Shown in pieces: positions 2,915-49,063 of a stretch of DNA of 64,000 bases (position 1 is the first letter of the stretch; the number at the start of each line of letters is the position of its first letter). Origin of the DNA: Candidatus Aldehydirespiratoraceae bacterium. GTDB taxonomy: Bacteria; Actinomycetota; Acidimicrobiia; Acidimicrobiales; Aldehydirespiratoraceae. A model generated the notes under the pieces. That model saw only the letters and a program-made list of their open reading frames with translations, had not been told where the DNA came from and did not search any database. The translations under genes and the position numbers were made by a program. Location of the stretch: contig JBLIOE010000019.1 in the NCBI GenBank assembly GCA_047639555.1, forward strand, positions 714-64,713. Direction: 5' to 3'.

Positions 2915-4252
2915 TTACCAGGTGGGTAGGTAACGCTCCAGTTCGAACGGTGTGACCTGGGATTGGTATTCGTCCCATTCGCTGCGTTTGTTCCGCAAGA
3001 ACCACTCGAAGATGTGGTCGCCGAGCGCAGAACGAACGAGCTCGGAACCTTCCATGAGGTCGAGCGCCTCATCGAGTGAGCGGGGGAGTGGTTCGATGCC
3101 GATCTCTCGGCGCTGGGCGTCGTCGAGATCGAAGAGGTTGACGTTGGTCTCGGGGGGCAACTCGTAGCCCTCGGCGATGCCTCGCATGCCGGCGGCGAGG
3201 AGCAGCGAGAACGCGAGGTACGGGTTACACGCCGGATCGGGGGCGCGGTATTCGATGCGGGCGGACTCGGGCTTGCCGACCTTACGGACCGGCAAACGCA
3301 CGAGGGCCGATCGGTTGTTGCGGGCCCACGCCACGTAGGGCGGCGCCTCGGAGGTTTCGGTGATGCGCTTGTAGCTGTTGACGAGCTGATTCGTGACCGC
3401 GGTGATCTCTCGGGCATGACGAAGGACACCGGCGGTGAACTGGCGAGCGGTGGGAGACCACCCGTATGGGTCGTCGCCATCGTGGAACGCGTTTTGTCCG
3501 TCCTTGAAGAGCGACAAGTGGGTGTGCATGCCTGAGCCTTGGACCCCGTTGAGCGGCTTCGGCATGAACGTCGCGTAAATATCGCGTTCGAGGGCAACCT
3601 TTTTCACGACAAGGCGAAGGGTCATCAGGTTGTCGGCCATGTCGAGCGCGCTGGTGTAACGCAGATCGATCTCGTGCTGGCTCGGCGAGTCTTCATGGAA
3701 CGAGTACTCGACCGGTATGCCCATTGCTTCGAGCATGTAGATCGTGCGCTTGCGGAGATCGCTCGAAACATCAGACGTGGTGAGGTCGAAATACGACGCC
3801 TGGTCCAGGGGCTGCGGCTTGCCGAGGGCGGGGTCGCCGGAGGCGAAGTAGAAGAACTCAACCTCGGGGGCCGCGAAGAATGAGTAACCCTCGGCCTGCG
3901 CCTCGTTGAGGTTGCGGCGGAGCACCTGTCGCGGGTCGCCCGCGAATGCCGTCTCGTCCAGGTTCTGAATGTCACAGAACATGCGGGCTGACGGTTCGTC
4001 TTCCTTCGCCCATGGCAACAACTCGAAGGTGGTGGCATCGGGACGAGCGAGCACGTCGGATTCGTGGACGCGACTGAAACCATCGATGGCGGTGCCGTCG
4101 AACTGCACGCCTTCAGAGAACGCCGTATCGAGTTCGGCGGGGGTGATCGCCACCGACTTCAGTTTCCCCAACACGTCGGTGAACCAGAGGCGGATGAGGC
4201 GCACCCCGCGTTCTTCGACCGTGCGAAGTACGTATTCCTGCTCGCGTTCCAT
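2915..4252 (-). CDS. glnA: Glutamine synthetase type I (GlnA2-like, 445 aa), no adenylylation tyrosine
   Basis: Full-length GSI (RLIRLWFTDVLGKLKS, GSGMHTHLSLF, NNRSALVRLP). The adenylylation loop reads NLFDL, with Phe where E. coli/Mtb GlnA1 have Tyr. Confidence 0.9.
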   Translation of the reverse strand: MEREQEYVLRTVEERGVRLIRLWFTDVLGKLKSVAITPAELDTAFSEGVQFDGTAIDGFSRVHESDVLARPDATTFELLPWAKEDEPSARMFCDIQNLDETAFAGDPRQVLRRNLNEAQAEGYSFFAAPEVEFFYFASGDPALGKPQPLDQASYFDLTTSDVSSDLRKRTIYMLEAMGIPVEYSFHEDSPSQHEIDLRYTSALDMADNLMTLRLVVKKVALERDIYATFMPKPLNGVQGSGMHTHLSLFKDGQNAFHDGDDPYGWSPTARQFTAGVLRHAREITAVTNQLVNSYKRITETSEAPPYVAWARNNRSALVRLPVRKVGKPESARIEYRAPDPACNPYLAFSLLLAAGMRGIAEGYELPPETNVNLFDLDDAQRREIGIEPLPRSLDEALDLMEGSELVRSALGDHIFEWFLRNKRSEWDEYQSQVTPFELERYLPTW

Positions 4253-4463: not shown

Positions 4464-5477
4464 ATGGCCTACCAGGCTGAATACCTGTGGATCGACGGCT
4501 CAGTGCCGACTCGTGAGATCCGCGGCAAGACCAAGATCCTTCAGGACGGCGACGTGCCCGGCATTTGGGGCTACGACGGCTCCAGTACCAACCAGGCCAC
4601 GGGCGACAACTCTGATGTTGTTCTCAACCCGGTGTTCCAGTGCCCCGATCCGATTCGTGGCGGCAACAACATCCTCGTGCTCTGTGAAACGGAGCTCACC
4701 GCGGATCGTTCACCGCACCCGACGAACACCCGTGCCCAGGCCCGGGAAGCGTTGGCCAAGTACGCCGACCAGGAGCCGTGGTTCGGTCTTGAGCAGGAGT
4801 ACACCCTGATCAACCCGTCCACCGGTTGGCCCGCCGGCTTCCCGCCGAACGGCTTCCCCGCTCCGCAGGGTCCCTACTACTGCGGTGTTGGCGCGCTGAA
4901 GATCCATGGCCGCGACCTCATTGAGGAGCACACGCAGGCATGCATCGACGCTGGCCTCATGATCTCTGGTACTAACGCTGAGGTCATGCCCGGTCAGTGG
5001 GAATTCCAGATCGGCCCGGTCGACACGGTTACCGTTGGCGACCATCTTTGGATCGCCCGTTACCTCCTCTACCGTCTCGCCGAGAACTACGAAGTCGAGG
5101 TGAGCATCGAGGCCAAGCCGATGAAGGGCGACTGGAACGGCGCCGGCATGCACACCAACTTCAGCACCAAAGCGATGCGCGAGAGCTACGAGCCGATCAT
5201 CGCCGCGTGCGAATCCATGGGTGCTGAAGGCGTCGTTGCCCGTCACCTTGTTGGCTACGGCACGGGTATCGAGGAGCGTCTCACCGGCGACCACGAGACC
5301 CAGCGTTTCGATCAGTTCAGCTATGGCGTTTCCGACCGCGGTGCGTCCATCCGTATCCCGTGGCAGGTTGCGCAGGATCAGAAGGGCTACATCGAAGATC
5401 GTCGCCCCAACGCCAACGCTGATCCCTATGTCGTGGCGACGCTGCTGACGAACACCATCTGCAGCGCACTCGCGTAA
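4464..5477 (+). CDS. glnII: Glutamine synthetase type II (eukaryote-like GSII, 337 aa)
   Basis: YLWIDG...WGYDGSSTNQA...FGLEQEYTL...GPYYCGVGA...NAEVMPGQWEFQIGP...PMKGDWNGAGMHTNFS...RIPWQVAQDQKGYIEDRRPNANADPY are canonical GSII motifs. Confidence 0.9.
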   Translation: MAYQAEYLWIDGSVPTREIRGKTKILQDGDVPGIWGYDGSSTNQATGDNSDVVLNPVFQCPDPIRGGNNILVLCETELTADRSPHPTNTRAQAREALAKYADQEPWFGLEQEYTLINPSTGWPAGFPPNGFPAPQGPYYCGVGALKIHGRDLIEEHTQACIDAGLMISGTNAEVMPGQWEFQIGPVDTVTVGDHLWIARYLLYRLAENYEVEVSIEAKPMKGDWNGAGMHTNFSTKAMRESYEPIIAACESMGAEGVVARHLVGYGTGIEERLTGDHETQRFDQFSYGVSDRGASIRIPWQVAQDQKGYIEDRRPNANADPYVVATLLTNTICSALA

Positions 5478-37439: not shown

Positions 37440-38513
37440 TTGGCCGCTGATCCTGTCGACTGGGACGTTGCCCGCACCGTTGCGCGCAAGGTTGCCGGCA
37501 AAGAGCCGTTCTCGCGACCGGAATTTCGTGACGGGCTCGAAGAGGATTTCGATCGGTACACCGCCATGGCGGAAGACTTGGTCGCCGCGGAAACCGGTCT
37601 GCGCTCACTGAGCGGCAACGCCCGTGGCCGCGTGACTGATCGCAATGGTTGGATCGACGCCAACCTCGCGTCGTTTCAGCGTCTGCTTCGTCCGATCACC
37701 ACGAAGTTGGGCGAGAAGCTCGAGGACGGCTCCGGCCCGAACCTGGGCGGCAAGATTGCCGGCGCCGAGCTGGGCATGATGCTTGGCTGGATGTCCACCC
37801 GTGTCCTCGGCCAATACGATCTGCTCGTCATCGAAGACGAGAAGCCCGACGAACAAGACATCGTCTACTACGTGGCTCCCAACGTGCTGGCGCTCGAGCG
37901 CCGATACGCCTTCCCGCCGCAAGAATTCCGTCTGTGGCTCGCACTGCATGAGGTCACCCATCGCGCCCAGTTCACGGGTGTGCCTTGGATGCGGGAGCAC
38001 TTCCTTGGTTTGGTGAACTCCACAATGGACTCGGTCGACCCCGACCCCCAACGTTTCATGGCGGCGATTCAGCGCATGATGGAGGCCCGTAAGCGGGGCG
38101 AAGACCCGATGGATCAGGGCGGGATGATGGCGCTTTTCGCCTCCGAGGAACAGCTCACCGTGATCAACGAAGTCGCCGGTCTGATGTCGCTGCTTGAGGG
38201 ACACGGCGACGTCACCATGGACCGCGCCGGTAAGGGCCTGGTGCCCTCTCAAGAACGGTTCGCTCGCGTGCTGCGCCAACGCCGCCAGAACTCGAGCGGG
38301 TTCACCAAGGTCTTCCAGAAACTGGCGGGCCTGGAAGCAAAGATCAAGCAGTACGCCGAGGGTGAGCACTTCATTTCGGTGGTTGAAGACCATGGCGGCG
38401 CTGACCTTCTCGATCGCGCCTGGGCCGAACCGATCAACGTGCCTTCGATCGCGGAGATCCGCGAACCTGAGCTGTGGATCGCCCGCGTGGGCGCTCGCAA
38501 CACCGCTGCCTGA
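37440..38513 (+). CDS. Zinc-dependent metalloprotease, DUF2342-like (HExxH)
   Basis: LALHEVTHRAQF zinc motif. TTG start. Conserved position upstream of tilS-hpt in actinobacteria. Confidence 0.7.
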   Translation: MAADPVDWDVARTVARKVAGKEPFSRPEFRDGLEEDFDRYTAMAEDLVAAETGLRSLSGNARGRVTDRNGWIDANLASFQRLLRPITTKLGEKLEDGSGPNLGGKIAGAELGMMLGWMSTRVLGQYDLLVIEDEKPDEQDIVYYVAPNVLALERRYAFPPQEFRLWLALHEVTHRAQFTGVPWMREHFLGLVNSTMDSVDPDPQRFMAAIQRMMEARKRGEDPMDQGGMMALFASEEQLTVINEVAGLMSLLEGHGDVTMDRAGKGLVPSQERFARVLRQRRQNSSGFTKVFQKLAGLEAKIKQYAEGEHFISVVEDHGGADLLDRAWAEPINVPSIAEIREPELWIARVGARNTAA

Positions 38514-38514
38514 G

Positions 38515-39393
38515 ATGACCCCGGTCGAGCTACTCGACCGGTGCGACTTCCCCGCGACTGCGGGCCGACTGAATCTCGGTGTGAGTGGCGGCGCCGACAG
38601 CATGGCGATGGCACTGCTCGCCCGAGCGGCCGGACGCGACATCGTGATGTGGCACGTCCACCATGGCCTTCGAGCGGAGGCCGACGATGATGCTGAACTG
38701 GTCGCGAAAAAGGCGGCCGAATGGGGTGTCCCGTTCGAGCTCCGTCGGATCGATCTCGAGCCCGGCCCGGATCTCGAAGGGCGCGCCCGTGAGGCCCGGT
38801 ATCGCGCTCTCCCGGCCGACGTCTGTGTCGGTCACACGGCCGACGACCGAGCCGAGACGGTCCTGCTGAACCTGCTGCGGGGGGCGGGGCTCGCTGGCGT
38901 TGCTGCCCGCCTCGATCGTGTTCATCGTCCGATTCGCCAGCTTCGCCGGGCCGACACGGTGGCGCTGTGCGCGGCCATGGAAATCATGGTCGTTGACGAC
39001 GCGATGAACCACGACGCTCGTTTTCGCCGGGTGATCGTGCGCGACCAGGTGCTCCCGCTCCTTGCGGAAGGTTTTGATCGAGATCCGGTACCACTTTTGA
39101 ACCGCCACGCCGACCTCGTGGCCGATGCCCTGGAGGTTGTACAGGCGGCGGCGGCGGCGATCGACGCGACCGATGTGCACTCGCTGCGGACGGCGCCGCG
39201 AGCGGTGGCGACCGAAGCCATCCGCCAGTGGATCGCGGGAGATCTCGGATCGATCGACGGTGTCGACCTTGCGGCGATCGACCGGGTGTTGCTGGTGGTC
39301 GATGGCACCCATCTCGCGACGGAGTTGCCGGGTGGCCATCGGGTGGCGCGGACCGGTGGCGTTCTGCGCATCGAACCCGTCGTGCGGCAGTAA
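38515..39393 (+). CDS. tilS: tRNA(Ile)-lysidine synthetase
   Basis: LGVSGGADSMAM PP-loop, HVHHGLR, GHTADDRAETVLLNLLRG. The ATG at 38515 lies 1 nt after the upstream stop. Confidence 0.85.
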   Translation: MTPVELLDRCDFPATAGRLNLGVSGGADSMAMALLARAAGRDIVMWHVHHGLRAEADDDAELVAKKAAEWGVPFELRRIDLEPGPDLEGRAREARYRALPADVCVGHTADDRAETVLLNLLRGAGLAGVAARLDRVHRPIRQLRRADTVALCAAMEIMVVDDAMNHDARFRRVIVRDQVLPLLAEGFDRDPVPLLNRHADLVADALEVVQAAAAAIDATDVHSLRTAPRAVATEAIRQWIAGDLGSIDGVDLAAIDRVLLVVDGTHLATELPGGHRVARTGGVLRIEPVVRQ

Positions 39394-39403
39394 GGTCCGG
39401 CAA

Positions 39404-39937
39404 ATGGGCGTACCAAAAGGAACACTCGGCGCGACCGTGATCGCCGCCGACGAACTCGCGGCTCGGGTGAAAGAACTCGGCCGCCAGATCACCGAGGACT
39501 ATGCCGACCGACAACCGCTGCTTGTGGGCGTTCTGAAGGGTGCGTTCATCTTCATGAGCGACCTGGGTCGATCCATCGGACGTCCGGTTGAGTTCGATTT
39601 CATGGCGGTGTCGTCCTACGGCGACTCCACGAGCACCAGTGGTGTGGTTCGTATTGTGAAGGACCTCGAGACCGATATCCGCGGCCGCGATGTGATCCTC
39701 GTCGAGGACATCGTCGATTCCGGTCTGACACTGCGTTACCTGCGACAGCTGCTCGAAGACCGTGAGCCCGCGAGCCTTGAAGTGTGTGCCCTGCTCGTGC
39801 GCGAGGGCGCCCGATCCGACGATGTGAAGTATGTCGGCTTCCCGATTCCGCCCGACTTTGTTGTCGGTTACGGCCTCGATGTCGCACAGCATTATCGAGA
39901 ACTTGACTCGATCCGGGTCTTCGAACCCGGAGAATGA
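39404..39937 (+). CDS. hpt: Hypoxanthine-guanine phosphoribosyltransferase
   Basis: [16 protein letters not shown] and [14 protein letters not shown] (PRPP motif). ATG at 39404. Confidence 0.9.
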
Positions 39938-39962
39938 GCCTCGGCTCGCTAGCTTTCGAGGC

Positions 39963-40595
39963 GTGAGTCACACACTTGACGACGATTTCGAATCCGACCG
40001 TCCACTGATCGACGGCATCCATGCCCCCGAGGTTGACCAGCCGCGTATCGCGGCTGCGGTCAGAGAGATTCTTGAGGCCATTGGCGAAGACCCCGAACGT
40101 GACGGTCTGCAAAACACCCCCAACCGGGTGGCGCGGATGTACGCCGAGGTATGTGCGGGGCTGCACCAAGAGCCAGCGGGCCACCTGAACACCACGTTCG
40201 AGGCGGGCCACGACGAGATGGTCATGGTCCGAGACATTCCGCTGTACTCCCTCTGTGAGCACCACCTCATTCCGTTCATGGGGAAGGCCCACGTCGCCTA
40301 CATCCCGAACGACACCGGCCGGGTCACGGGGCTCTCCAAGCTCGCCCGTTTGGTCGATGGCTTCGCCAAGCGCCCGCAGGTCCAGGAGCGGCTCACTCAA
40401 CAGGTCGCCGGGGCGATCGAGTCTGAGCTCGAACCGCGTGGCGTGCTCGTCGTGATCGAGGCCGAGCATCTCTGTATGTCGATGCGGGGCGTTCGGAAGC
40501 CCGGATCGAGCACCGTCACCTCCAGTGTCACCGGCATCTTCCGCGAAAACGTGGCCACTCGCGCTGAGGCCATGCGTTTCATCGAGCGACACTAA
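39963..40595 (+). CDS. folE: GTP cyclohydrolase I
   Basis: [51 protein letters not shown] at 39963; the track start 39831 overlaps hpt. Confidence 0.9.
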
Positions 40596-40597
40596 GC

Positions 40598-41404
40598 GTG
40601 AACTCGCCGTCGATGACCCAAGTGATGGGCATCGTCAACGTCACGCCCGATTCGTTCTCCGACGGGGGTCGTTGGCTCGACACCGCAGCGGCGATCTCCC
40701 ATGCCCGCGCCCTCATTGACGAGGGGGCCGACCTGATCGACATCGGCGGCGAGAGCTCGCGACCGGGCTCCGTGCCGGTCGACGAAGCCACCGAGTTGGC
40801 CCGCACCATCCCGGTCATTGCCGCGCTCGCCGATTCGATCGGTGATGTCGAAATCTCAATCGACACCACGAAGCCGACCGTCGCCCGGGCCGCGGTCGCG
40901 GCGGGTGCCACGATCATCAACGACATCAGCGCCTCGCTCGAAGACATAGCGGCCGAAACGGGAGCCGGCTGGATCGCCATGCACAGCCTCGGCCCGAGCG
41001 CGACGATGCAAATTGATCCCCGCTACGACGATGTGGTCGAGGAGGTGGCGTCGTTCCTGGCCGCTGCTGTCGAGCGCGGGAAACGGGCCGGTGTGAAGCG
41101 GCTTTGGGTCGACCCCGGCATCGGGTTTGGCAAGACCACCGCTCACAACCTCGATTTGGTCGCGAATCTCGATCGTTTTTCAGAGATTGCGCCGGTGTTG
41201 GTCGGCGTGAGTCGGAAACGATTCGTGGGCGAAATTCACGCGGAATCTGACGGTATTTCAAGGGAAACACCGGTTACGGATGCCGACGATCGGCTGGAAG
41301 GATCGCTGGCGATCGCCGCGTGGGCCACACACTTGGGCGCCCACGTCGTCCGCGTGCACGATGTGCGGGCTACGGTCCACGCCGTGCGAGTTGTGCAGTC
41401 ATGA
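40598..41404 (+). CDS. folP: Dihydropteroate synthase
   Basis: VMGIVNVTPDSFSDGG, DIGGESSRPG, INDISA, DPGIGFGK. Confidence 0.9.
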   Translation: MNSPSMTQVMGIVNVTPDSFSDGGRWLDTAAAISHARALIDEGADLIDIGGESSRPGSVPVDEATELARTIPVIAALADSIGDVEISIDTTKPTVARAAVAAGATIINDISASLEDIAAETGAGWIAMHSLGPSATMQIDPRYDDVVEEVASFLAAAVERGKRAGVKRLWVDPGIGFGKTTAHNLDLVANLDRFSEIAPVLVGVSRKRFVGEIHAESDGISRETPVTDADDRLEGSLAIAAWATHLGAHVVRVHDVRATVHAVRVVQS

Positions 41405-42012
41405 GGGGCAAGTGGGCCCAAGGCATCGAACCGAGACATTTCCGTTGGATCGTGAAGGACCGCGTCGCGGTTTGTGAACGTCCCGGTGGGTATGGCGACA
41501 GCCATCGCAAGGTGCGCCGCCAAGAAGAGATCATCTGGCTTCGTCAGCATGAGTTCGACTTCGTGGTGTCGCTGATTGGTTCGACTCACAACCTGCACAA
41601 CTATGAAGAACTCGGCGTGCCGTTTCATCACGTGCCCTTCTCGGGAGCCGGCGATGGCCCGCTGGGCCTGACGCGGGCGATGGCCTCGATTCGTGACCAT
41701 GTCGAAAAGGGTCACAAGATCGTGATCCACCGAGAAGAACTCGGCGAGACCATCACGGGTCTGATCGGCGCCTACCTCCTGTGGATGGGGCTCGTTCCCG
41801 ACGGCCCGAAGGCGATCATGTTCACCGAACAGCTCTTCGAGCGCGAACTCGGCCCGAGAGCGCGTGAAATGGTGTCGATCGTTGGAAAATGCCAGCCGTC
41901 CGCCGAAGTTGAGGTTGACGCTTTCGCCCACGTCGCCGCCGCCGTCGAAGAGGAGCCCGCCGAGGGCGACGACACCGACAGCGACGATGCCGACAGCGCG
42001 GGCGACGACTGA
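41401..42012 (+). CDS. Phosphatase-fold (dual-specificity PTP-like) protein lacking the catalytic Cys/Arg, with acidic C-terminal tail
   Basis: VVSLI...YEELGVPFHHVPF...GHKIVIHREELGETITGLIGAYLLW resembles the DSP core, but the P-loop reads HREELGET instead of HCxxGxxR. ATGA overlap with folP. Tail EEEPAEGDDTDSDDADSAGDD. The fold call is by eye only. Confidence 0.45.
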   Translation: MRGKWAQGIEPRHFRWIVKDRVAVCERPGGYGDSHRKVRRQEEIIWLRQHEFDFVVSLIGSTHNLHNYEELGVPFHHVPFSGAGDGPLGLTRAMASIRDHVEKGHKIVIHREELGETITGLIGAYLLWMGLVPDGPKAIMFTEQLFERELGPRAREMVSIVGKCQPSAEVEVDAFAHVAAAVEEEPAEGDDTDSDDADSAGDD

Positions 42013-42018
42013 ACCGTC

Positions 42019-42387
42019 GTGGGATCCGCTGACGCCGTGATCCAGCTGCGAGGCCTGCGGTGTATGTGCATCTGCGGTGCCCTCCCCGAAGAACAAGATC
42101 GCCGCCAGCCCTACGAGTTCGATATCGACCTGATTGCCGATCTTCCGGCCACTGAGTCCGACGACCTCAACGACACGATCGACTATGGCGGCGTGCTCAA
42201 CCGCATTGAGGCGGTCACGCTCGACGAGTCGTTCCAACTCTTCGAACGTATGGCACAACGTGTGGCCGAGGCCGTCCTCGAAGATGAACGCATCGAGCAG
42301 GTCACCGTGGAGGTTCGAAAGCTCCGCCCACCGGTGGCCCAAGATGTTGCGTCGAGCGGGATGCGGCTCACCCGTCGAAGGGGATGA
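42019..42387 (+). CDS. folB: Dihydroneopterin aldolase
   Basis: IQLRGLRCMCICGALPEEQDRRQPYEFDIDL...TIDYGGV...VTVEVRKLRPP. Confidence 0.85.
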   Translation: MGSADAVIQLRGLRCMCICGALPEEQDRRQPYEFDIDLIADLPATESDDLNDTIDYGGVLNRIEAVTLDESFQLFERMAQRVAEAVLEDERIEQVTVEVRKLRPPVAQDVASSGMRLTRRRG

Positions 42388-43601
42388 CCGATACTCGCCG
42401 AGCGTTTCTTGCGCTGGGATCCAATATCGGTGATCGAGTCAGCCACCTCCGCGAGGCAGTCGAACGTATTCCCGATGTCGTCGCGGTCTCGGCGGTCTAC
42501 GAGACCCCACCGATCAGCGACGTGGCCCAAGACGCCTTCTTGAACATGGTGGTGCGGCTCGACACGGCTCTCAGCCCCCACGAGCTGCTGGATGTCTGCC
42601 GGCGTTGCGAAACGTCGGCGGATCGGGTGCGGGTGGTGCATTGGGGGCCGCGCACACTCGATGTTGATGTGTTGTGGGTCGATGGTGAAACAGTCGACGA
42701 TCCGCCCGATCTCTTCGTACCGCACCCGCGGATGTTTGAGCGTTCGTTCGTGTTGGTGCCGCTCGCCGATGTCGGTGCCGATCTGTTGCCGACCGGATAC
42801 GACGTTGACGCGGTGGCTGCCGCGGACGGTATTGGACGAGTTGGCTCGATCGATCAGCTCGATACGGAGCGAATCCAGCTTGTCACCCACATCGTGGGCG
42901 CCGGCCGAGCCGGCACCGCGCTGGCCGCGGCGTTGGGAACGGCGGGCTGGCCCGAACCTCGACTCTTCGGTCGAAACGTCCCGATCGCCGGAATTGGGAA
43001 GGGCGCCGATCTCGTGATTATTGCCACCCCCGACGAAGTGATTGGCGAAGTCGCCGCGTCACTTCCAGTCTCGGGCGATCGAGTGGTTGCCCACCTCTCC
43101 GGTTCACTGGGACTCGCGGTTCTGGCCGATCATCCTCGAGCGGCGACCCTCCATCCGCTGGTCTCAATGGCCGACGCCGCCACCGGGGCCGAACGACTCC
43201 GCGGCGCGTGGTTTGCCGTCGCCGGTGATCCTCGGATCGGTGCGGTCGTCGATGCCCTCGGAGGTCGTTCCATTCGTGTCGCCGACGAGGATCGCGCCGC
43301 CTACCACGCCGCCGCGGTGGTGGCTTCGAATCACCTCGTGGCGTTGCTGGGTCAGGCGGAGCGAATCGCGGCGACTGTTGGCGTGCCCTTCGAGGCACTT
43401 CTCGATCTCGTGAACTCCTCGGTCGCGAATGTTGCCGCGCTCGGTCCCGCCTCGGCTCTCACTGGGCCGGCGGCACGAGGTGACGAAGCCACGATCGAGC
43501 GTCATGTCGCTGCGCTCGACGAGAGCGAGCGGGCCACCTACCTCGCAATGGCCGACGAGGCCCGCCGACTGGCGGGTCGACCCTCTGCGGACGACTCGTA
43601 A
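42384..43601 (+). CDS. folK: Fusion protein: HPPK (FolK) N-terminal domain plus Rossmann/DUF2520-like oxidoreductase C-terminal domain
   Basis: N-terminus AFLALGSNIGDR...WGPRTLDVDVL...VPHPRMFERSFVLVPL is HPPK. From ~aa 165, IVGAGRAGTALAAALG (GxGxxG) ...AAYHAAAVVASNHLVALL...LTGPAARGD resembles the DUF2520 protein that precedes panC in mycobacteria. A single uninterrupted 405-aa ORF. Confidence 0.8.
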   Translation: MTDTRRAFLALGSNIGDRVSHLREAVERIPDVVAVSAVYETPPISDVAQDAFLNMVVRLDTALSPHELLDVCRRCETSADRVRVVHWGPRTLDVDVLWVDGETVDDPPDLFVPHPRMFERSFVLVPLADVGADLLPTGYDVDAVAAADGIGRVGSIDQLDTERIQLVTHIVGAGRAGTALAAALGTAGWPEPRLFGRNVPIAGIGKGADLVIIATPDEVIGEVAASLPVSGDRVVAHLSGSLGLAVLADHPRAATLHPLVSMADAATGAERLRGAWFAVAGDPRIGAVVDALGGRSIRVADEDRAAYHAAAVVASNHLVALLGQAERIAATVGVPFEALLDLVNSSVANVAALGPASALTGPAARGDEATIERHVAALDESERATYLAMADEARRLAGRPSADDS

Positions 43602-43610
43602 GATCGACTC

Positions 43611-44468
43611 GTGGACATCTTCACGACGATCGATTCGCTTCGCACTCGCCTCGACGCTGACCGAGGCGCGGGGCGGTCAATCGGCTTCGTCCCCACGATG
43701 GGTTTCCTCCACGACGGGCACGTGTCGTTGATCGACGCGTCGGTGGCCGCCAACGACCGCACGGTGGTGTCGATCTTTGTCAATCCGCTGCAGTTCGCGC
43801 TCGGCGAGGATCTCGAGGACTATCCGCGTGACCTTGAGGCCGATCTCTCCCTGGTCGAGGCCGCCAGGGCCGATTATGTATTCGCGCCATCAATCGACGA
43901 GATGTACCCCTCAGAGGTCGACACGGTCGTGACGGTCCCCGGTGTTGCTGCGCCCCTGGAGGGAGTGCATCGCCCGACCCACTTTGCCGGCGTGGCCACG
44001 GTGGTGGCGAAGCTCTTCTCGATCGTCGGTGCCTGCCAAGCGTATTTCGGAGCCAAGGACTGGCAGCAGGTCTCCGTCGTGCGTCGAATGGTGGCGGACC
44101 TCAGCATGCCGGTGACGGTCGTTCCCTGCCCGATCGTTCGCGAAGCCGACGGCCTCGCCATGTCGAGTCGCAACGTGTATCTCACCGACGCCGAGCGCGC
44201 CGTTGCCCCCGCGCTGCGGGCCGCCCTCGATGCCGGTCTGGTTCTGCTCACACAGGGCGAGCGCGAAGCGTCGGCCATCGAGATCGAGATGCGCCGCGTG
44301 CTTGCGGCGCGAGCTCCGAGTGGCACGGTGGACTATTCCGCGGCGGTGCCCGCCCACACCCTGGTGTCCGACGGCCCGCTGCAGGGCGAGGTCCGTCTCC
44401 TGCTGGCGGTGAAGTTCCAGAAGGCCCGTCTTATCGACAATGACGGCACAGTGATCGCGGACCTCTAG
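43611..44468 (+). CDS. panC: Pantoate--beta-alanine ligase
   Basis: GFVPTMGFLHDGHVSLI, SIFVNPLQF, MSSRNVYL. GTG start. Confidence 0.9.
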   Translation: MDIFTTIDSLRTRLDADRGAGRSIGFVPTMGFLHDGHVSLIDASVAANDRTVVSIFVNPLQFALGEDLEDYPRDLEADLSLVEAARADYVFAPSIDEMYPSEVDTVVTVPGVAAPLEGVHRPTHFAGVATVVAKLFSIVGACQAYFGAKDWQQVSVVRRMVADLSMPVTVVPCPIVREADGLAMSSRNVYLTDAERAVAPALRAALDAGLVLLTQGEREASAIEIEMRRVLAARAPSGTVDYSAAVPAHTLVSDGPLQGEVRLLLAVKFQKARLIDNDGTVIADL

Positions 44469-44588
44469 GAGAGTTCCAACCTGGCGGCGCGACCTACCCG
44501 CTGACGTCGATCTCCATGTCTGCCGGGCAGTCTCTCGCCGACGCATGATCGTCCCGCGTGTTGGTGAACCGTCGCGTACGCTCGCTCC

Positions 44589-45410
44589 ATGACAGAAATC
44601 AAGGCGGACTGGTATCCCGACCCGGGTGGCAAACACGAGCTTCGTTACTACGACGGCACGGCCTGGACCGATCACGTATCGAGCCATGGTCGCCAGTCCA
44701 CCGACCCGCTCGTCGACGCGGGAATGGTGCCGACGACGGGCACTCCTCAGGCGAAGATTCAGCAGCAGGTCAACGAGAAGGCGGGTGTGCCGTCGGCCGC
44801 CGCGGGCGGCGGCACCATATTCAGCGAGCCGATCATCGTCGTCAACCAGAAGGCCAAGCTTCTCGAGATCAACACTGAGTATTCGGTGTTCGATCAGAAC
44901 GGCACGCAGATCGGGGCGATCCGCCAGGTCGGCCAAAGCAAGCTCAAAAAGGCCGCTCGGCTGGTGAGCAGTCTCGACCAGTTCATGACTCACAGCCTGC
45001 AGTTGGTCGACACCCAAGGTGTCGTGCAGCTCACGGTCACCCGGCCGGCGAAGTTTGTGAAGTCGAAGGTGCACGTCACCGACGCGGCGGGCAACGCAGT
45101 TGGTTCGATCGTGCAGAAAAACATGATGGGCAAGATCAAGTTCTCGCTCGAAACACCCTCGGGTCAGATCGGCACGCTCAACGGCGAGAACTGGCGAGCG
45201 TGGAACTTCAACCTGCAAGACGGTCAGGGCAATGAGGTCGCTCGGATCACCAAGACCTGGGAAGGGCTCGCGAAGACGATGTTCACCTCGGCGGACAACT
45301 ATGTCCTGCAGATTCATCGTCCGCTTGAAGAACCGTTGCGCAGCCTGGTGCTGGCATCGGCGGTATCGGTCGATCTTGCCCTCAAACAGGACAGCCGCGG
45401 GCTCGGGTAG
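44589..45410 (+). CDS. DUF2510 domain plus phospholipid-scramblase/LURP-one-like (tubby-fold) protein
   Basis: N-terminus DWYPDPGGKHELRYYDGTAWTDHV (DUF2510). The C-terminal 190 aa follow the scramblase pattern (YSVFDQNGTQIGAIRQ..., LTVTRPAKF..., ITKTWEGLAKTMFTSADNYVLQI, LVLASAVSVDLALKQ). Confidence 0.7.
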   Translation: MTEIKADWYPDPGGKHELRYYDGTAWTDHVSSHGRQSTDPLVDAGMVPTTGTPQAKIQQQVNEKAGVPSAAAGGGTIFSEPIIVVNQKAKLLEINTEYSVFDQNGTQIGAIRQVGQSKLKKAARLVSSLDQFMTHSLQLVDTQGVVQLTVTRPAKFVKSKVHVTDAAGNAVGSIVQKNMMGKIKFSLETPSGQIGTLNGENWRAWNFNLQDGQGNEVARITKTWEGLAKTMFTSADNYVLQIHRPLEEPLRSLVLASAVSVDLALKQDSRGLG

Positions 45411-45426
45411 GCGCTAGCGTTTCGGA

Positions 45427-46221
45427 GTGCTCCTTACGATCGACGTCGGCAACACGCAGAACGTCCTCGGTCTTTACGACCCCGGAAGCGATTCTGGAGA
45501 GGGCGCGGCTGTCGGGCTGGTCGATCACTGGCGGCTGTCGACCGACGCCGAGCGCACGTCCGACGAGTATTCGATCGCGATCCGGTCGCTACTTGATACG
45601 GCCGATGTCGATTTTGAGACGGATCTCACCGGTGTCGCTATCTGTTCGGGTGTGCCCCGAATCTTGGCGAACCTTCGGCAAATGGTTGAGCGTTACCTGT
45701 CGTTCGAACCGATCGTCATTGAACCGGGCGTCAAGACCGGGATGCCGATCCTCTACGACAACCCGAAGGAGGTTGGCGCCGACCGGATCGCCAACGCGAT
45801 CGCCGCGCACGACCTCTACGGCGGGCCCACCGTGGTCGTCGACTTCGGCACCGGCAACAACTTCGACGTGATCTCCGCTGATGGCGAGTTTCTGGGCGGC
45901 GCGATCGCCCCCGGAATTGAGGTCAGCCTTGATGCCCTATTCGGTCGAGCGGCGCAACTTCGCGCCATCGAGCTCGTCGAGCCGCGCAGTGTGATTGGCA
46001 AGTCCACTGTTGAGTCGATCCAGTCCGGTGCCGTCTACGGCTTCGCCGCCATGATCGATGGCATGATCGAACGTTTCGCTCGTGAACTCGGCGAAATCAA
46101 CGTCATCGCCACAGGCGGGCTGGCGCATCTGATCTCGCCCGTCGCCGAGAGCATCCAACACGTCGAACCCTTCCTCACCCTCCACGGTCTTCGGATCGTT
46201 CACCAACGGAACCAGCGATGA
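45427..46221 (+). CDS. coaX: Type III pantothenate kinase
   Basis: LLTIDVGNTQ, VVVDFGTGNNFD, IATGGLA. GTG start. Confidence 0.9.
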   Translation: MLLTIDVGNTQNVLGLYDPGSDSGEGAAVGLVDHWRLSTDAERTSDEYSIAIRSLLDTADVDFETDLTGVAICSGVPRILANLRQMVERYLSFEPIVIEPGVKTGMPILYDNPKEVGADRIANAIAAHDLYGGPTVVVDFGTGNNFDVISADGEFLGGAIAPGIEVSLDALFGRAAQLRAIELVEPRSVIGKSTVESIQSGAVYGFAAMIDGMIERFARELGEINVIATGGLAHLISPVAESIQHVEPFLTLHGLRIVHQRNQR

Positions 46222-47687
46222 CCGAACCTGTCCCGTACCGCGCCGACGTCACTGCGACCACGGCGCAGATCCTGCACGACCATGCGAATCTCGAAGATGG
46301 CGAGGAGACCGACGTCGTCGTGTCGATCGCCGGCCGCCTCATGCTGCGACGAGATCAGGGCAAGCTTGCCTTCGGTGTCCTGCAGGATTCCACGGGTCGA
46401 ATTCAGCTCTTCGCGATGGCGAAGCTCACGCCGGAGTTCGACGGTTTCACCGGGCTGTCGATCGGCGATTGGATCCTCGTGAAGGGCATCGTGATGAACA
46501 CCAAGCGCGGTGAACTCTCCGTGCGGGTCGACGAGTGGACGGTGCTCGCCCACGCCCAACGGCCATTCCCCGACAAGTGGCACGGCATCACCGATCCCGA
46601 TATTCGATACCGCCAGCGTTATGTCGACCTCTGGGTGACGGAAGAGGCCCGCACCGCATTTCGGCAACGGTCACAAATCGTGGCGTCGATGCGCCGCTGG
46701 CTGGGTGAGCGCGACTTCATCGAAGTCGAAACCCCGATGCTTCATCCCATTCCGGGGGGAGCGCTGGCGAAGCCGTTTGTCACCCACCACAACGCGCTCG
46801 ATACCGAGATGTATCTCCGGATTGCTCCGGAGCTCTATCTCAAGCGTCTCGTCGTCGGCGGGATGGAACGCGTCTTCGAAATCGGCCGCGTGTTCCGCAA
46901 CGAGGGCACGTCTACGCGCCACAATCCCGAGTTCACGATGCTTGAGCTCTATTGGGCCTACGCCGACCACCGCGACATGATGACGCTCACCGAAGACATG
47001 GTCGCGGCCGCGGCCACGGAAGTAATCGGCTCTACCACGATCGAATACGACGGCCGTGAGGTCGATCTTTCCACCCCGTGGCGTCGAGCCACGATGGAAG
47101 AACTGATCCTCGAACACGCGGGCATTGAGGTGAGCATCGACACTCCAATCGACGAGCTCCGAGCGTTGTGCGACAAGTTCGGGGTGGAGGCCAAGGACCA
47201 CTACGGCCCGGGCAAGCTCATCCTCGAGATCTACGAGAAGACCACCGAGTCCGAACTGTGGGGACCAATCTTCGTTACCGACTATCCGGTTGAAGTTTCG
47301 CCTCTCTCTCGCGAACACCGAGACCGTCCGGGCTACACCGAACGCTTCGAGGCGATCGTGGCTGGTCGCGAGCTTTGCAACGGCTTCTCCGAGCTGCAGG
47401 ACCCAGTCGTGCAACGCCAACGTTTCGAAGCGCAGGAGGCGGAAGGCGCCGCCGGCGACGACGAAGCCATGGTGGTCGACGACGACTACATCCGGGCGCT
47501 CGAATATGGCCTACCCGGCACCGCCGGCTTGGGCATCGGCATCGACCGTCTTGTGATGTTGCTCACCGGCACCACCACGATTCGCGACGTGGTGCTGTTC
47601 CCGACTCTGCGCCCCGAGTCGCCTGCGTCAGCCGCGACTTCGACCGACGAATCCGTCGAGGACGACGAGCAGTCGGCCCCCGAGTAG
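46218..47687 (+). CDS. lysS: Lysine--tRNA ligase (class II)
   Basis: OB-fold N-domain, FIEVETPML, RVFEIGRVFRNEG, GLGIGIDRLVMLLTG. ATGA overlap with coaX. Confidence 0.95.
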   Translation: MTEPVPYRADVTATTAQILHDHANLEDGEETDVVVSIAGRLMLRRDQGKLAFGVLQDSTGRIQLFAMAKLTPEFDGFTGLSIGDWILVKGIVMNTKRGELSVRVDEWTVLAHAQRPFPDKWHGITDPDIRYRQRYVDLWVTEEARTAFRQRSQIVASMRRWLGERDFIEVETPMLHPIPGGALAKPFVTHHNALDTEMYLRIAPELYLKRLVVGGMERVFEIGRVFRNEGTSTRHNPEFTMLELYWAYADHRDMMTLTEDMVAAAATEVIGSTTIEYDGREVDLSTPWRRATMEELILEHAGIEVSIDTPIDELRALCDKFGVEAKDHYGPGKLILEIYEKTTESELWGPIFVTDYPVEVSPLSREHRDRPGYTERFEAIVAGRELCNGFSELQDPVVQRQRFEAQEAEGAAGDDEAMVVDDDYIRALEYGLPGTAGLGIGIDRLVMLLTGTTTIRDVVLFPTLRPESPASAATSTDESVEDDEQSAPE

Positions 47688-47695
47688 CGCTGGCG

Positions 47696-49063
47696 TTACG
47701 TCCGAGCAGCTTTCGGCGTCTTGTAACGGAGCAGCGGCTGTTCGACGAGATACCAAGACGCCGCCGTGAAGAGCGTCGTTAAGCCGAGAGCCAGGAACGT
47801 CTTCCAGAGCACCGAACCGTCGCCCCACCAGTACCGCACGGCAGCGAACACAAGGGCGTGCCAGAGGTAGAGGCCGTAGGCGACCTTGCCGATGCCGCGG
47901 AGCCACGCCATCGAGAGCACGCGGCCACACAGCGTTCCTTGGGCCCCGATCGAGCCCCAGACGATGAAGGCACCCGAAAGGGCAACGAGCGTCCAGCCGT
48001 ACTCGTAGAAGAACGGCTCGCCCAGGGTCCGTTGGTTGACTGCCCAAAGAAAGAACACCCATCCGACCGTTGCGAGCCATGTGGGCCCTCGTCGAGGGAT
48101 CCATCCCTCAACCCAAATAAATGCGAGCCCGGCTCCGACCATCAGTGAGTCCGCCCGACCCAAAGTGCCGCTGTAGAGGCGGAAGACTTCGCCGCCACCC
48201 TCGTAGCTGCCGTTGCGGTAGAGAAGCGTCGCACCAATGATGACCACGATGATCGACAGAATCCACACGGTGCGGTCTCGCTGCGAACGAATGAGCTCGA
48301 GGAGCCCGGTGACGAACGCCAGCACGATCGCGGTGGTCGCCCATCGGCCCGCATCGTCCGAGTCGTTCCAGATGTAATTGTGTCCGGCCATCACAACAGC
48401 GACGCCGCCGAGGACCGACGCGCCCACGTTTATCGCCGGCCGACGAGACAACATCGCGACGACCACTGTCGGCCAGACAATGTAGAACTGCTCCTCAACG
48501 GACAGTGACCAGAGATGGGCCAGACCGAGCGAGATGTTGTAACCATCGCCGATGTCGGAGAGCCAGTTCAGGCTGAAGAAGGCCGCACCAAGGATGGACG
48601 CAACCTGGTCGGCCCCATCCGTGCCCGGGCTGAACAGTGGCACGTTGGGAATATCGGTCAGCGCGGCGAACACGATGTGTCCGGCCAGGAACAGGAACAG
48701 CGCAGGGAGAAGTCGAAACGCTCGGCGCCGATAGAAGCCCCTAAAGCTGATGACGTTCGTTCGAGTCTGCTCATTCAGCATGAGCGCCGTGATGAGGAAT
48801 CCGCTCAAAACGAAGAACAGATCAACGCCGAGATGACCGGACTTGAGCCACGAGTACTGGCGTTCGAGGATGTCGCTCGGGTAGTGCCAAAGGACGACGA
48901 GAAGCACGGCGAAGCCGCGAACGCCGTCGAGGGCCGGTTCCTGACCGAGCTGTCGCTTGGTGCTGACCGCGGCGGTTTGAGATGTTTCCATCGGTCTCCA
49001 GGTTGGGCGCGCTCGGGCTATTAGTACCGCAGTAGGGCGGCTTCGGCAATGAGCCATAGACAT
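47696..49063 (-). CDS. Acyltransferase-3 family integral membrane O-acyltransferase
   Basis: LDGVRGFAVLLVVLWH and HLGVDLFFVLSGFLIT. About 10 TM helices. ATGA overlap with the upstream MDR gene stop. Confidence 0.8.
   Translation of the reverse strand: MSMAHCRSRPTAVLIARARPTWRPMETSQTAAVSTKRQLGQEPALDGVRGFAVLLVVLWHYPSDILERQYSWLKSGHLGVDLFFVLSGFLITALMLNEQTRTNVISFRGFYRRRAFRLLPALFLFLAGHIVFAALTDIPNVPLFSPGTDGADQVASILGAAFFSLNWLSDIGDGYNISLGLAHLWSLSVEEQFYIVWPTVVVAMLSRRPAINVGASVLGGVAVVMAGHNYIWNDSDDAGRWATTAIVLAFVTGLLELIRSQRDRTVWILSIIVVIIGATLLYRNGSYEGGGEVFRLYSGTLGRADSLMVGAGLAFIWVEGWIPRRGPTWLATVGWVFFLWAVNQRTLGEPFFYEYGWTLVALSGAFIVWGSIGAQGTLCGRVLSMAWLRGIGKVAYGLYLWHALVFAAVRYWWGDGSVLWKTFLALGLTTLFTAASWYLVEQPLLRYKTPKAART

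Follow-up and report, generated by a model that had tools for sequence, protein, structure and literature searches.

The enzyme 6-hydroxymethyl-7,8-dihydropterin pyrophosphokinase (HPPK, the product of folK) is described both as a monofunctional protein, with structures from Escherichia coli (1hka), Staphylococcus aureus (3qbc) and Bacillus anthracis (8sk1), and as one part of larger proteins in which it is joined to the product of a neighbouring gene, namely the DHNA-HPPK protein SulD of Streptococcus pneumoniae (2cg8), the HPPK-DHPS proteins of Francisella (4pzv) and Arabidopsis (7mpy), and the HPPK-DHPS of yeast Fol1 (2bmb). These known fusions join adjacent steps of folate synthesis. The subject of the present work is a gene in which HPPK is likewise joined to the product of its neighbour, but in which that partner belongs to pantothenate synthesis and has no substrate in common with HPPK. 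The gene comes from an uncultured member of the Acidimicrobiales and lies in a 64-kb stretch of DNA with 64% GC (assembly GCA_047639555.1, contig JBLIOE010000019.1), which is referred to throughout as the window and whose first letter is position 1, and it encodes in a single open reading frame (ORF) an HPPK domain followed by a Rossmann and DUF2520 domain of the PanG type.

The closest described counterpart of the second domain is PanG itself. FTT1388 of Francisella is a PanG, a ketopantoate reductase that acts in place of PanE (Miller 2013, as cited in PMC4684696 and PMC4572677). Rv3603c of Mycobacterium tuberculosis is likewise a PanG, and PMC11626117, citing Pepi 2022, calls it “the exclusive ketopantoate reductase”. 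Family activity is established by these two proteins, and the first-pass annotation of the window, which treated the reductase role as merely suspected from gene context, is outdated in this respect. A DUF2520 protein of Corynebacterium has been called a homologue of FTT1388 and of EF1861 from Enterococcus faecalis (PMC4572677). Rv3603c is a member of COG5495, and it was noted in 2012 that its gene context ties it to the operon for folate as well as to that for pantothenate, the synteny of fol and pan genes extending across Actinobacteria and Firmicutes (PMC3317503); in M. tuberculosis the operon reads panG-panC-panD-coaX (bioRxiv 10.1101/2024.03.29.587195). The name has also been given to YkpB of Bacillus subtilis, a PanE-family paralogue that was renamed ‘PanG’ and is unrelated to the DUF2520-type PanG (bioRxiv 10.1101/2024.04.17.589903).

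The protein encoded in the window is most probably a bifunctional FolK-PanG, in which the two domains would carry out their canonical and chemically unrelated reactions. Both enzymes and their adjacency are already known, and what is new is an architecture that crosses pathways; no description of an HPPK-PanG architecture was found in the literature searched. The fusion is genuine, and is not an artefact of assembly.

The fused gene and its HPPK half

The gene is one uninterrupted ORF on the forward strand with an ATG start and a TAA stop, and its ATG overlaps the stop codon of folB by 4 nt (ATGA). The same frame is used throughout, with a GC content at third codon positions (GC3) of 0.71 in the HPPK part, 0.62 at the junction and 0.70 in the PanG part. 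Its components are as follows.

42384..43601, forward strand: fused folK-panG gene, 405 aa plus TAA
42384..42860, forward strand: HPPK (FolK) part, aa 1-159 (PF01288, TIGR01498, Foldseek match to 8sk1), corresponding to the complete FolK of 159 aa that is a separate protein in the unfused locus L087
42861..42869, forward strand: junction codons D160-T161-E162, from the alignment to L087
42870..43598, forward strand: PanG-type part (COG5495, Rossmann and DUF2520), aa 163-405 (PF10728, PDB profile matches, Foldseek)
42897..42914, forward strand: dinucleotide-binding motif G172-A-G174-R-A-G177, invariant in fused and stand-alone homologues

Domains were assigned with Pfam and NCBIfam at curated cut-offs, and structures were evaluated by comparing AlphaFold2 models with Foldseek. 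The HPPK family PF01288 matches aa 8-130 with 129.2 bits against a cut-off of 25.7 (E=1.2e-37), and the folK model TIGR01498 matches with 120.5 bits against a cut-off of 54.1 (E=5e-35). In the model of the full protein, which has a predicted local distance difference test (pLDDT) score of 93.1 and a predicted template modelling (pTM) score of 0.76, the N-terminal half forms the complete alpha-beta-alpha HPPK fold, aligning to B. anthracis HPPK (8sk1_A) over 159 columns of 162 residues with a template modelling (TM) score of 0.85 and a root-mean-square deviation of 2.0. SulD, the HPPK-DHPS proteins and Fol1 are also among the PDB matches to this half. The HPPK motifs align with those of the S. 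aureus and B. anthracis enzymes, and ten residues (N54, R81, R83, W87, R90, D93, D95, H114, R120 and F122) do not vary across 17 fused orthologues. They correspond, in the same order, to N55, R82, R84, W89, R92, D95, D97, H115, R121 and F123 of the E. coli enzyme, and comprise the catalytic Arg pair, the two Mg-binding Asp residues, and the pterin- and ATP-binding residues. Judged by residue conservation, the HPPK catalytic set is intact in the fusion. Compared to the monofunctional enzymes, with which it has in common the full-length fold and the catalytic and Mg/ATP residues, the fusion adds a 243-aa C-terminal extension from another vitamin pathway. Residues 1-159 would thus constitute a complete pyrophosphokinase, transferring pyrophosphate from ATP to the pterin in the step before FolP.

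Were the single ORF an artefact of assembly or sequencing, it would reflect a stop that was lost, or a frameshift that was introduced, between two separate genes. The genes are indeed separate in most relatives, often with one in-frame stop between them, and one fused database entry (P0022, 392 aa) is garbled in both domains in a manner resembling a frameshift, so that some isolated HPPK-PanG metagenome entries may be assembly errors. The window is not a case of this kind. The exact 405-aa protein is present on at least seven contigs, three of its places of occurrence being JGI 3300053770, JGI 3300055003 and Logan SRR28417531, and among 5.8 billion protein clusters searched, 26 combine the two domains. 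Identity to the window in eleven further fused orthologues (P0001-P0011) is 66-92% for the PanG half and 76-97% for the HPPK half; in 9/9 full-length fused orthologues with both domains aligned, the two matches are 32 aa apart, as they are in the window; and in a neighbour-joining (NJ) tree of the PanG domain the window and P0001-P0011 form one fused clade. One of these orthologues, P0003, is encoded on a 4.48-Mb contig of the Acidimicrobiales metagenome-assembled genome (MAG) GCA_033344915.1, in the same gene order as in the window: tilS-like, hpt, folE, folP, a gene of unknown function, folB, the fusion, panC, a scramblase-like gene, coaX and lysS. The junction, moreover, differs from that of the unfused locus L087 by a 28-nt change in length and not by a 1-nt error. 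An artefact of assembly or sequencing can be given virtually no probability.

The probable PanG-type reductase half

The C-terminal half was described in the first-pass annotation as a DUF2520-type oxidoreductase of the kind found beside panC, in a 405-aa ORF that also holds a complete HPPK and a GxGxxG Rossmann motif. This description is borne out by the ORF itself, by Pfam and NCBIfam, and by AlphaFold2 and Foldseek, and panC begins 9 nt downstream. The similarity to DUF2520 emerges directly on profile search, PF10728 matching aa 285-391 with 111.2 bits against a cut-off of 25 (E=3.6e-32). The best PDB profile matches are TM1727 (2i76, E=4e-26) and BF3122 (3d1l, E=6e-22), and these two are also the top Foldseek matches of a model of aa 163-405 alone (pLDDT 95.9, with the helical DUF2520 domain starting at about aa 301), with query TM scores (TMq) of 0.77 for 3d1l_B and 0.70-0.73 for 2i76; the C-terminal half of the full-length model matches both as well. 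TM1727 and BF3122 are thus the closest solved structures by profile and by fold; both are stand-alone structural-genomics proteins without an assigned function, and both have a full-length Rossmann part.

Stand-alone DUF2520 homologues of about 240 aa, which JGI names as COG5495, have 60-67% identity to the domain. The GxGxxG motif, R197, P216-D217, H237-x-x-G240, H257-P258, Y307-H308...N316-H317 and T360-G-P-x-x-R365-G-D367 vary little or not at all among up to 105 homologues, whether fused or stand-alone, and TM1727 has them too, in the form of its PD, HxxG, HP, YHxAA..ASN and TGPxxRGD motifs. With the described PanG proteins (FTT1388, EF1861 and Rv3603c) the domain shares DUF2520, the GxGxxG Rossmann part, the position directly upstream of panC, and the panG-panC-...-coaX logic of the operon, and the reaction, 2-dehydropantoate plus NADPH to pantoate, is presumed to be the same. 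It differs from them in being covalently joined to FolK and in having about 20 fewer residues in its Rossmann half, a feature common to every Acidimicrobiia homologue seen. The same reaction is carried out by PanE/ApbA and, as a side activity, by IlvC, but both of these families differ from the PanG part: the fused protein has no Pfam match to the ApbA domains (PF02558/PF08546) at E<=0.01 and is therefore not a PanE/ApbA member, and ketol-acid reductoisomerases are distant fold neighbours. Residues 163-405 would accordingly be expected, on family membership and gene position, to form a PanG-type NADPH-dependent ketopantoate reductase. Its product from 2-dehydropantoate would be (R)-pantoate, on which the PanC encoded next to it acts.

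Several results weigh against this assignment. The Rossmann-like family PF10727 matches aa 200-249 with only 20.1 bits, under its 23-bit cut-off, and no NCBIfam model matches the C-terminal half. The low PF10727 score arises because about 20 residues after Rossmann strand beta2 (window 42970-43010, aa about 196-209) are missing relative to the canonical proteins P0129, P0141 and P0145, all of which pass PF10727. The link of aa 163-405 to the validated PanG proteins Rv3603c, FTT1388 and EF1861 is indirect, running through shared Pfam and COG membership and the published papers. Finally, no PanE or IlvC Pfam domains were found among the approximately 37 ORFs of the window, a scan confined to the window; a panE or ilvC elsewhere in the genome would make the PanG domain dispensable or differently used. 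As to the shortening itself, it is common to the stand-alone Acidimicrobiia homologues, and the hundreds of short forms that adjoin panC suggest that the short Rossmann part would be a compact but functional variant; the shortening seems to argue against a canonical architecture and not against function.

The same features could be taken to indicate that the C-terminal domain is a different NADPH-dependent reductase, possibly with a pterin or folate intermediate as its substrate, and its constant place beside folK would then be accounted for. The shortened and divergent Rossmann half is compatible with such an identity, as is the fact that the link to PanG runs through family membership and not through direct comparison with a validated PanG, and the fold does not give specificity, the neighbours beyond TM1727 and BF3122 being NADPH-dependent pyrroline-5-carboxylate (P5C) reductases, ketol-acid reductoisomerases, imine reductases and prephenate dehydrogenases. 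The domain is, on the other hand, equally constant beside panC, and several lineages have it joined to PanC in one protein; conservation of the DUF2520 motifs is complete; and the validated family members are ketopantoate reductases (PMC4684696, PMC11626117). A different substrate is therefore considered highly unlikely, and the assignment as a PanG-type ketopantoate reductase is preferred.

Origin of the junction and consequences of the fusion

In order to place the fusion against a background of unfused genes, a profile scan of GTDB species genomes was used, from which at least 80 loci were listed, nearly all of them from Acidimicrobiia MAGs. None of these is fused and none is from the window's own clade; they serve as the unfused background and not as an unbiased frequency of fusion. 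The separation of folK and panG in them was judged by tblastn with an ORF check, and in-frame stops were confirmed by direct translation. In 77 of the listed species loci folK and panG are adjacent but separate, 26 having the two genes in the same frame with an in-frame stop and 51 having them in different frames. The gap between the folK and panG matches is less than 300 nt in 74/77 of the separate loci, and there is no gene between the two in any of the 77, apart from three in which the gap is 465-1109 nt. In loci with a parsable junction the median distance from the folK stop to the PanG GxGxxG motif is 55 nt, panG starting a few to tens of nt past that stop in many loci and overlapping it by 4 nt in several. 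The order panG-panC is found in about 73/80 listed loci, and the longer order folE-folP-unknown-folB-folK-panG-panC-(scramblase)-coaX-lysS is nearly universal among them. The suggestion in the first-pass annotation that the fusion replaces the DUF3180-type genes that mycobacteria have after folK is not correct: because folK and panG are adjacent where they are still separate genes, the class Acidimicrobiia as a whole lacks genes between the two, and did so before the fusion arose.

The unfused locus L087 (protein P0029) has a synteny identical to that of the window, including the scramblase gene, with 77% identity in FolK and 64.5% in PanG. Its folK ends in ...RVGELADL-TGA; a spacer of 34 nt separates this stop from panG, which starts with GTG and is in the +1 frame. 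In the DNA alignment the window has GAT at 42861-63, and the window and the fused locus L081 have GAT or GAG, exactly where L087 has the TGA, and both are a net 28 nt (3n+1) shorter than L087 between the codons for Leu159 and His169. As a result the linker is almost nil, FolK ending at L159 and being followed by the junction residues DTE and then by the former N-terminus of PanG. The ancestral state in Acidimicrobiia is an adjacent and tightly packed folB-folK-panG-panC, from which the window's lineage has lost the TGA of folK, its junction now being 28 nt shorter than that of L087. Since a single deletion extending across the stop and most of the 34-nt spacer would produce both the loss of the stop and the correction of the frame, this is the simplest course of events, and it would have placed panG in the frame of folK with about three junction residues.

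Two other ways of expressing the locus were considered. Programmed frameshifting or readthrough was rejected, the ORF being continuous, and internal initiation as the source of the main product was rejected because there is no start codon where the stand-alone homologues begin. A weaker form of the latter, in which an internal start gives a second product from the fused ORF and free PanG is still made, with little functional consequence of the fusion, could draw on the in-frame GTG codons at 144 and 171 and on a GGAG at 42866-69 that may be a relic ribosome-binding site. These two GTG codons are the only in-frame candidates, as codons 160-165, where the stand-alone homologues start, contain no ATG, GTG or TTG, and a separate PanG product is therefore unlikely. 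GTG171 is one residue before G172, so that initiation there would remove strand beta1, and GTG144 is without a convincing ribosome-binding site. Additional translation from an internal start is thus regarded as very improbable.

We infer that both domains would be active enzymes using their canonical substrates, and that adjacency would have driven the fusion, which would be largely neutral. The two domains would act independently, and the consequence of their joining would be an obligatory 1:1 co-expression and not a new reaction. Nothing in the data indicates channelling, cross-pathway chemistry or functional coupling, and the fusion is not required, because close unfused relatives exist. 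The sole metabolic link that can be named is an indirect one: PanB makes the substrate of PanG using 5,10-methylene-tetrahydrofolate.

That link is the basis on which the fusion could instead be adaptive, with FolK-PanG coordinating the synthesis of folate and pantothenate through stoichiometry, co-regulation or co-localisation in response to the folate requirement of PanB, which is established knowledge. In keeping with this proposal, the fused state has been kept, with a constant junction spacing, across a clade spanning 66-92% identity, other HPPK-PanG lineages are many-membered (P0145, n=9; P0167, n=14), and the fol/pan synteny holds across Acidimicrobiia and in Actinobacteria and Firmicutes too (PMC3317503). 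Against it, 0/77 listed species loci are fused and the close relative L087 is unfused; HPPK and PanG are several steps from a shared metabolite, which makes channelling chemically implausible; and other neighbouring pairs (PanG-PanC, HPPK-PanC) have been fused too, as adjacency alone predicts. An adaptive fusion is consequently judged unlikely. A stronger version, in which FolK-PanG is a functional unit because the PanG domain has gained, or had from the outset, an additional reductase activity towards a pterin or folate intermediate, or because HPPK allosterically ties pantoate output to folate status, would make the protein an enzyme of both pathways that genuinely connects vitamin B9 with vitamin B5, but there is little likelihood that it applies. 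The physical link between folate and pantothenate synthesis to which the first-pass annotation drew attention is therefore correct in the literal sense, whereas functional coupling is not supported: the fusion is rare, lineage-restricted, explained by a 28-nt shortening across a stop, and found amid other fusions of neighbours.

Further fusions were identified in a search of a library of 1.84 billion protein representatives, from which the best 150 matches were used. When surveyed in this way HPPK-DUF2520 fusions are recurrent but rare, there being, besides the 26 two-domain clusters, about eight fused HPPK-PanG proteins among those 150 matches, including P0024, P0129, P0141, P0142, P0145 (9 members) and P0167 (14 members), some of which have the long Rossmann part. 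The same 150 matches include PanG-PanC fusions, verified with Pfam in P0133 and P0143, and several further representatives of 540-586 aa that are PanG-PanC candidates on length only, as well as one HPPK-PanC fusion (P0245, 468 aa) and one HPPK-DHPS (P0253). P0117 and P0118 are likewise PanG-PanC fusions verified with Pfam, the four verified proteins having 535-586 aa, and the locus L085 contains a PanG-PanC gene (L085:6001-7611) followed by panD, nadB, nadC and coaX. The PanG-PanC and HPPK-PanC fusions, from metagenomic Actinomycetota, belong to the same neighbourhood and, like FolK-PanG, join adjacent fol and pan genes in frame; PanG-PanC joins consecutive steps of a pathway, which FolK-PanG does not, and the PanG-PanC fusions tie the domain to the use of pantoate. 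The NJ tree of the PanG domain, which carries no support values, places fused proteins in about 11 positions among unfused ones, although several of these lineages are single proteins and may be MAG errors. It is concluded, on the strength of those clusters that have several members, that neighbours in the fol/pan string have been joined in frame repeatedly, though rarely, and that the fused protein of the window is a member of a single stable clade of fusions.

The folate-pantothenate gene string and its significance

The fused gene is a member of a tightly packed string, of which the remaining members, all on the forward strand, are the following.

39831-40595, forward strand: folE, upstream member of the packed string
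40598-41404, forward strand: folP, upstream member of the packed string
about 41398-42012, forward strand: ORF of unknown function between folP and folB
42019..42387, forward strand: folB (dihydroneopterin aldolase; PF02152, E=3e-27), directly upstream of the fusion
43611..44468, forward strand: panC (pantoate-beta-alanine ligase; PF02569, E=4e-98), starting 9 nt past the fusion stop
44589-45410, forward strand: scramblase/DUF2510 gene between panC and coaX
45427..46221, forward strand: coaX (type III pantothenate kinase family; PF03309, E=2e-68; synteny)
46218-47687, forward strand: lysS, downstream end of the listed string

The window has no panD after panC (44468-45427), unlike Mycobacterium and L085, and it shares the insertion of the scramblase/DUF2510 gene between panC and coaX only with its nearest relatives among the loci found, namely L081, L087 and about a dozen more. 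A scan of positions 38500-48000 for promoters and terminators gave no signal above shuffled expectation. Long antisense ORFs with high GC3 lie over the fol and pan genes (41236-42342, 38530-39492 and 43164-43505, all on the reverse strand), and a GC3-based caller picks some of them; these were rejected as expected artefacts of DNA with such a GC content. Elsewhere in the window there are two glutamine synthetase-like genes in divergent orientation, at 2915-4252 on the reverse strand and 4464-5477 on the forward strand, the 337-aa product of the latter matching the first half of the catalytic-domain model only and being possibly truncated or divergent.

The ORF between folP and folB deserves separate mention. 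Its product of about 200 aa has no Pfam or NCBIfam match, and the gene is kept in that position in 76/80 listed loci (e.g. L087:2537-3115). A single-sequence PDB search with the ORF (41398-42009) returned no match, while a profile of 23 homologues of the product matches the dual-specificity phosphatase family structure PDB 25xa (E=9e-10). The product is without the catalytic Cys and Arg of the CX5R motif, has H111 followed by R/E-E-L-G, and in its N-terminal part has the invariant motif CERPGGxGxxHRxVRRxEEIxW instead. One possibility is a phosphatase-fold protein of the folate operon that works without the Cys, for example in the dephosphorylation of dihydroneopterin triphosphate, a step to which no enzyme is assigned here; another is a pseudo-phosphatase.

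The fused gene reveals no new enzyme, pathway or mechanism. Its interest is in part evolutionary, the locus being a clean and datable case of the birth of a bifunctional gene for which the intermediate, with its stop, 34-nt spacer and +1 offset, survives in L087. The PanG-PanC fusions and the invariant adjacency of panG and panC, in addition, add comparative support for PanG outside Francisella and Mycobacterium, in which PanG is of interest as a drug target. There is also a practical consequence for annotation, because NCBI and JGI name the fused proteins (P0001-P0004, P0129 and P0145) only ‘2-amino-4-hydroxy-6-hydroxymethyldihydropteridine diphosphokinase’ (folK) and leave the reductase half unannotated. 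Metabolic reconstructions could as a result record no ketopantoate reductase in these Acidimicrobiales and mistake them for pantothenate auxotrophs.

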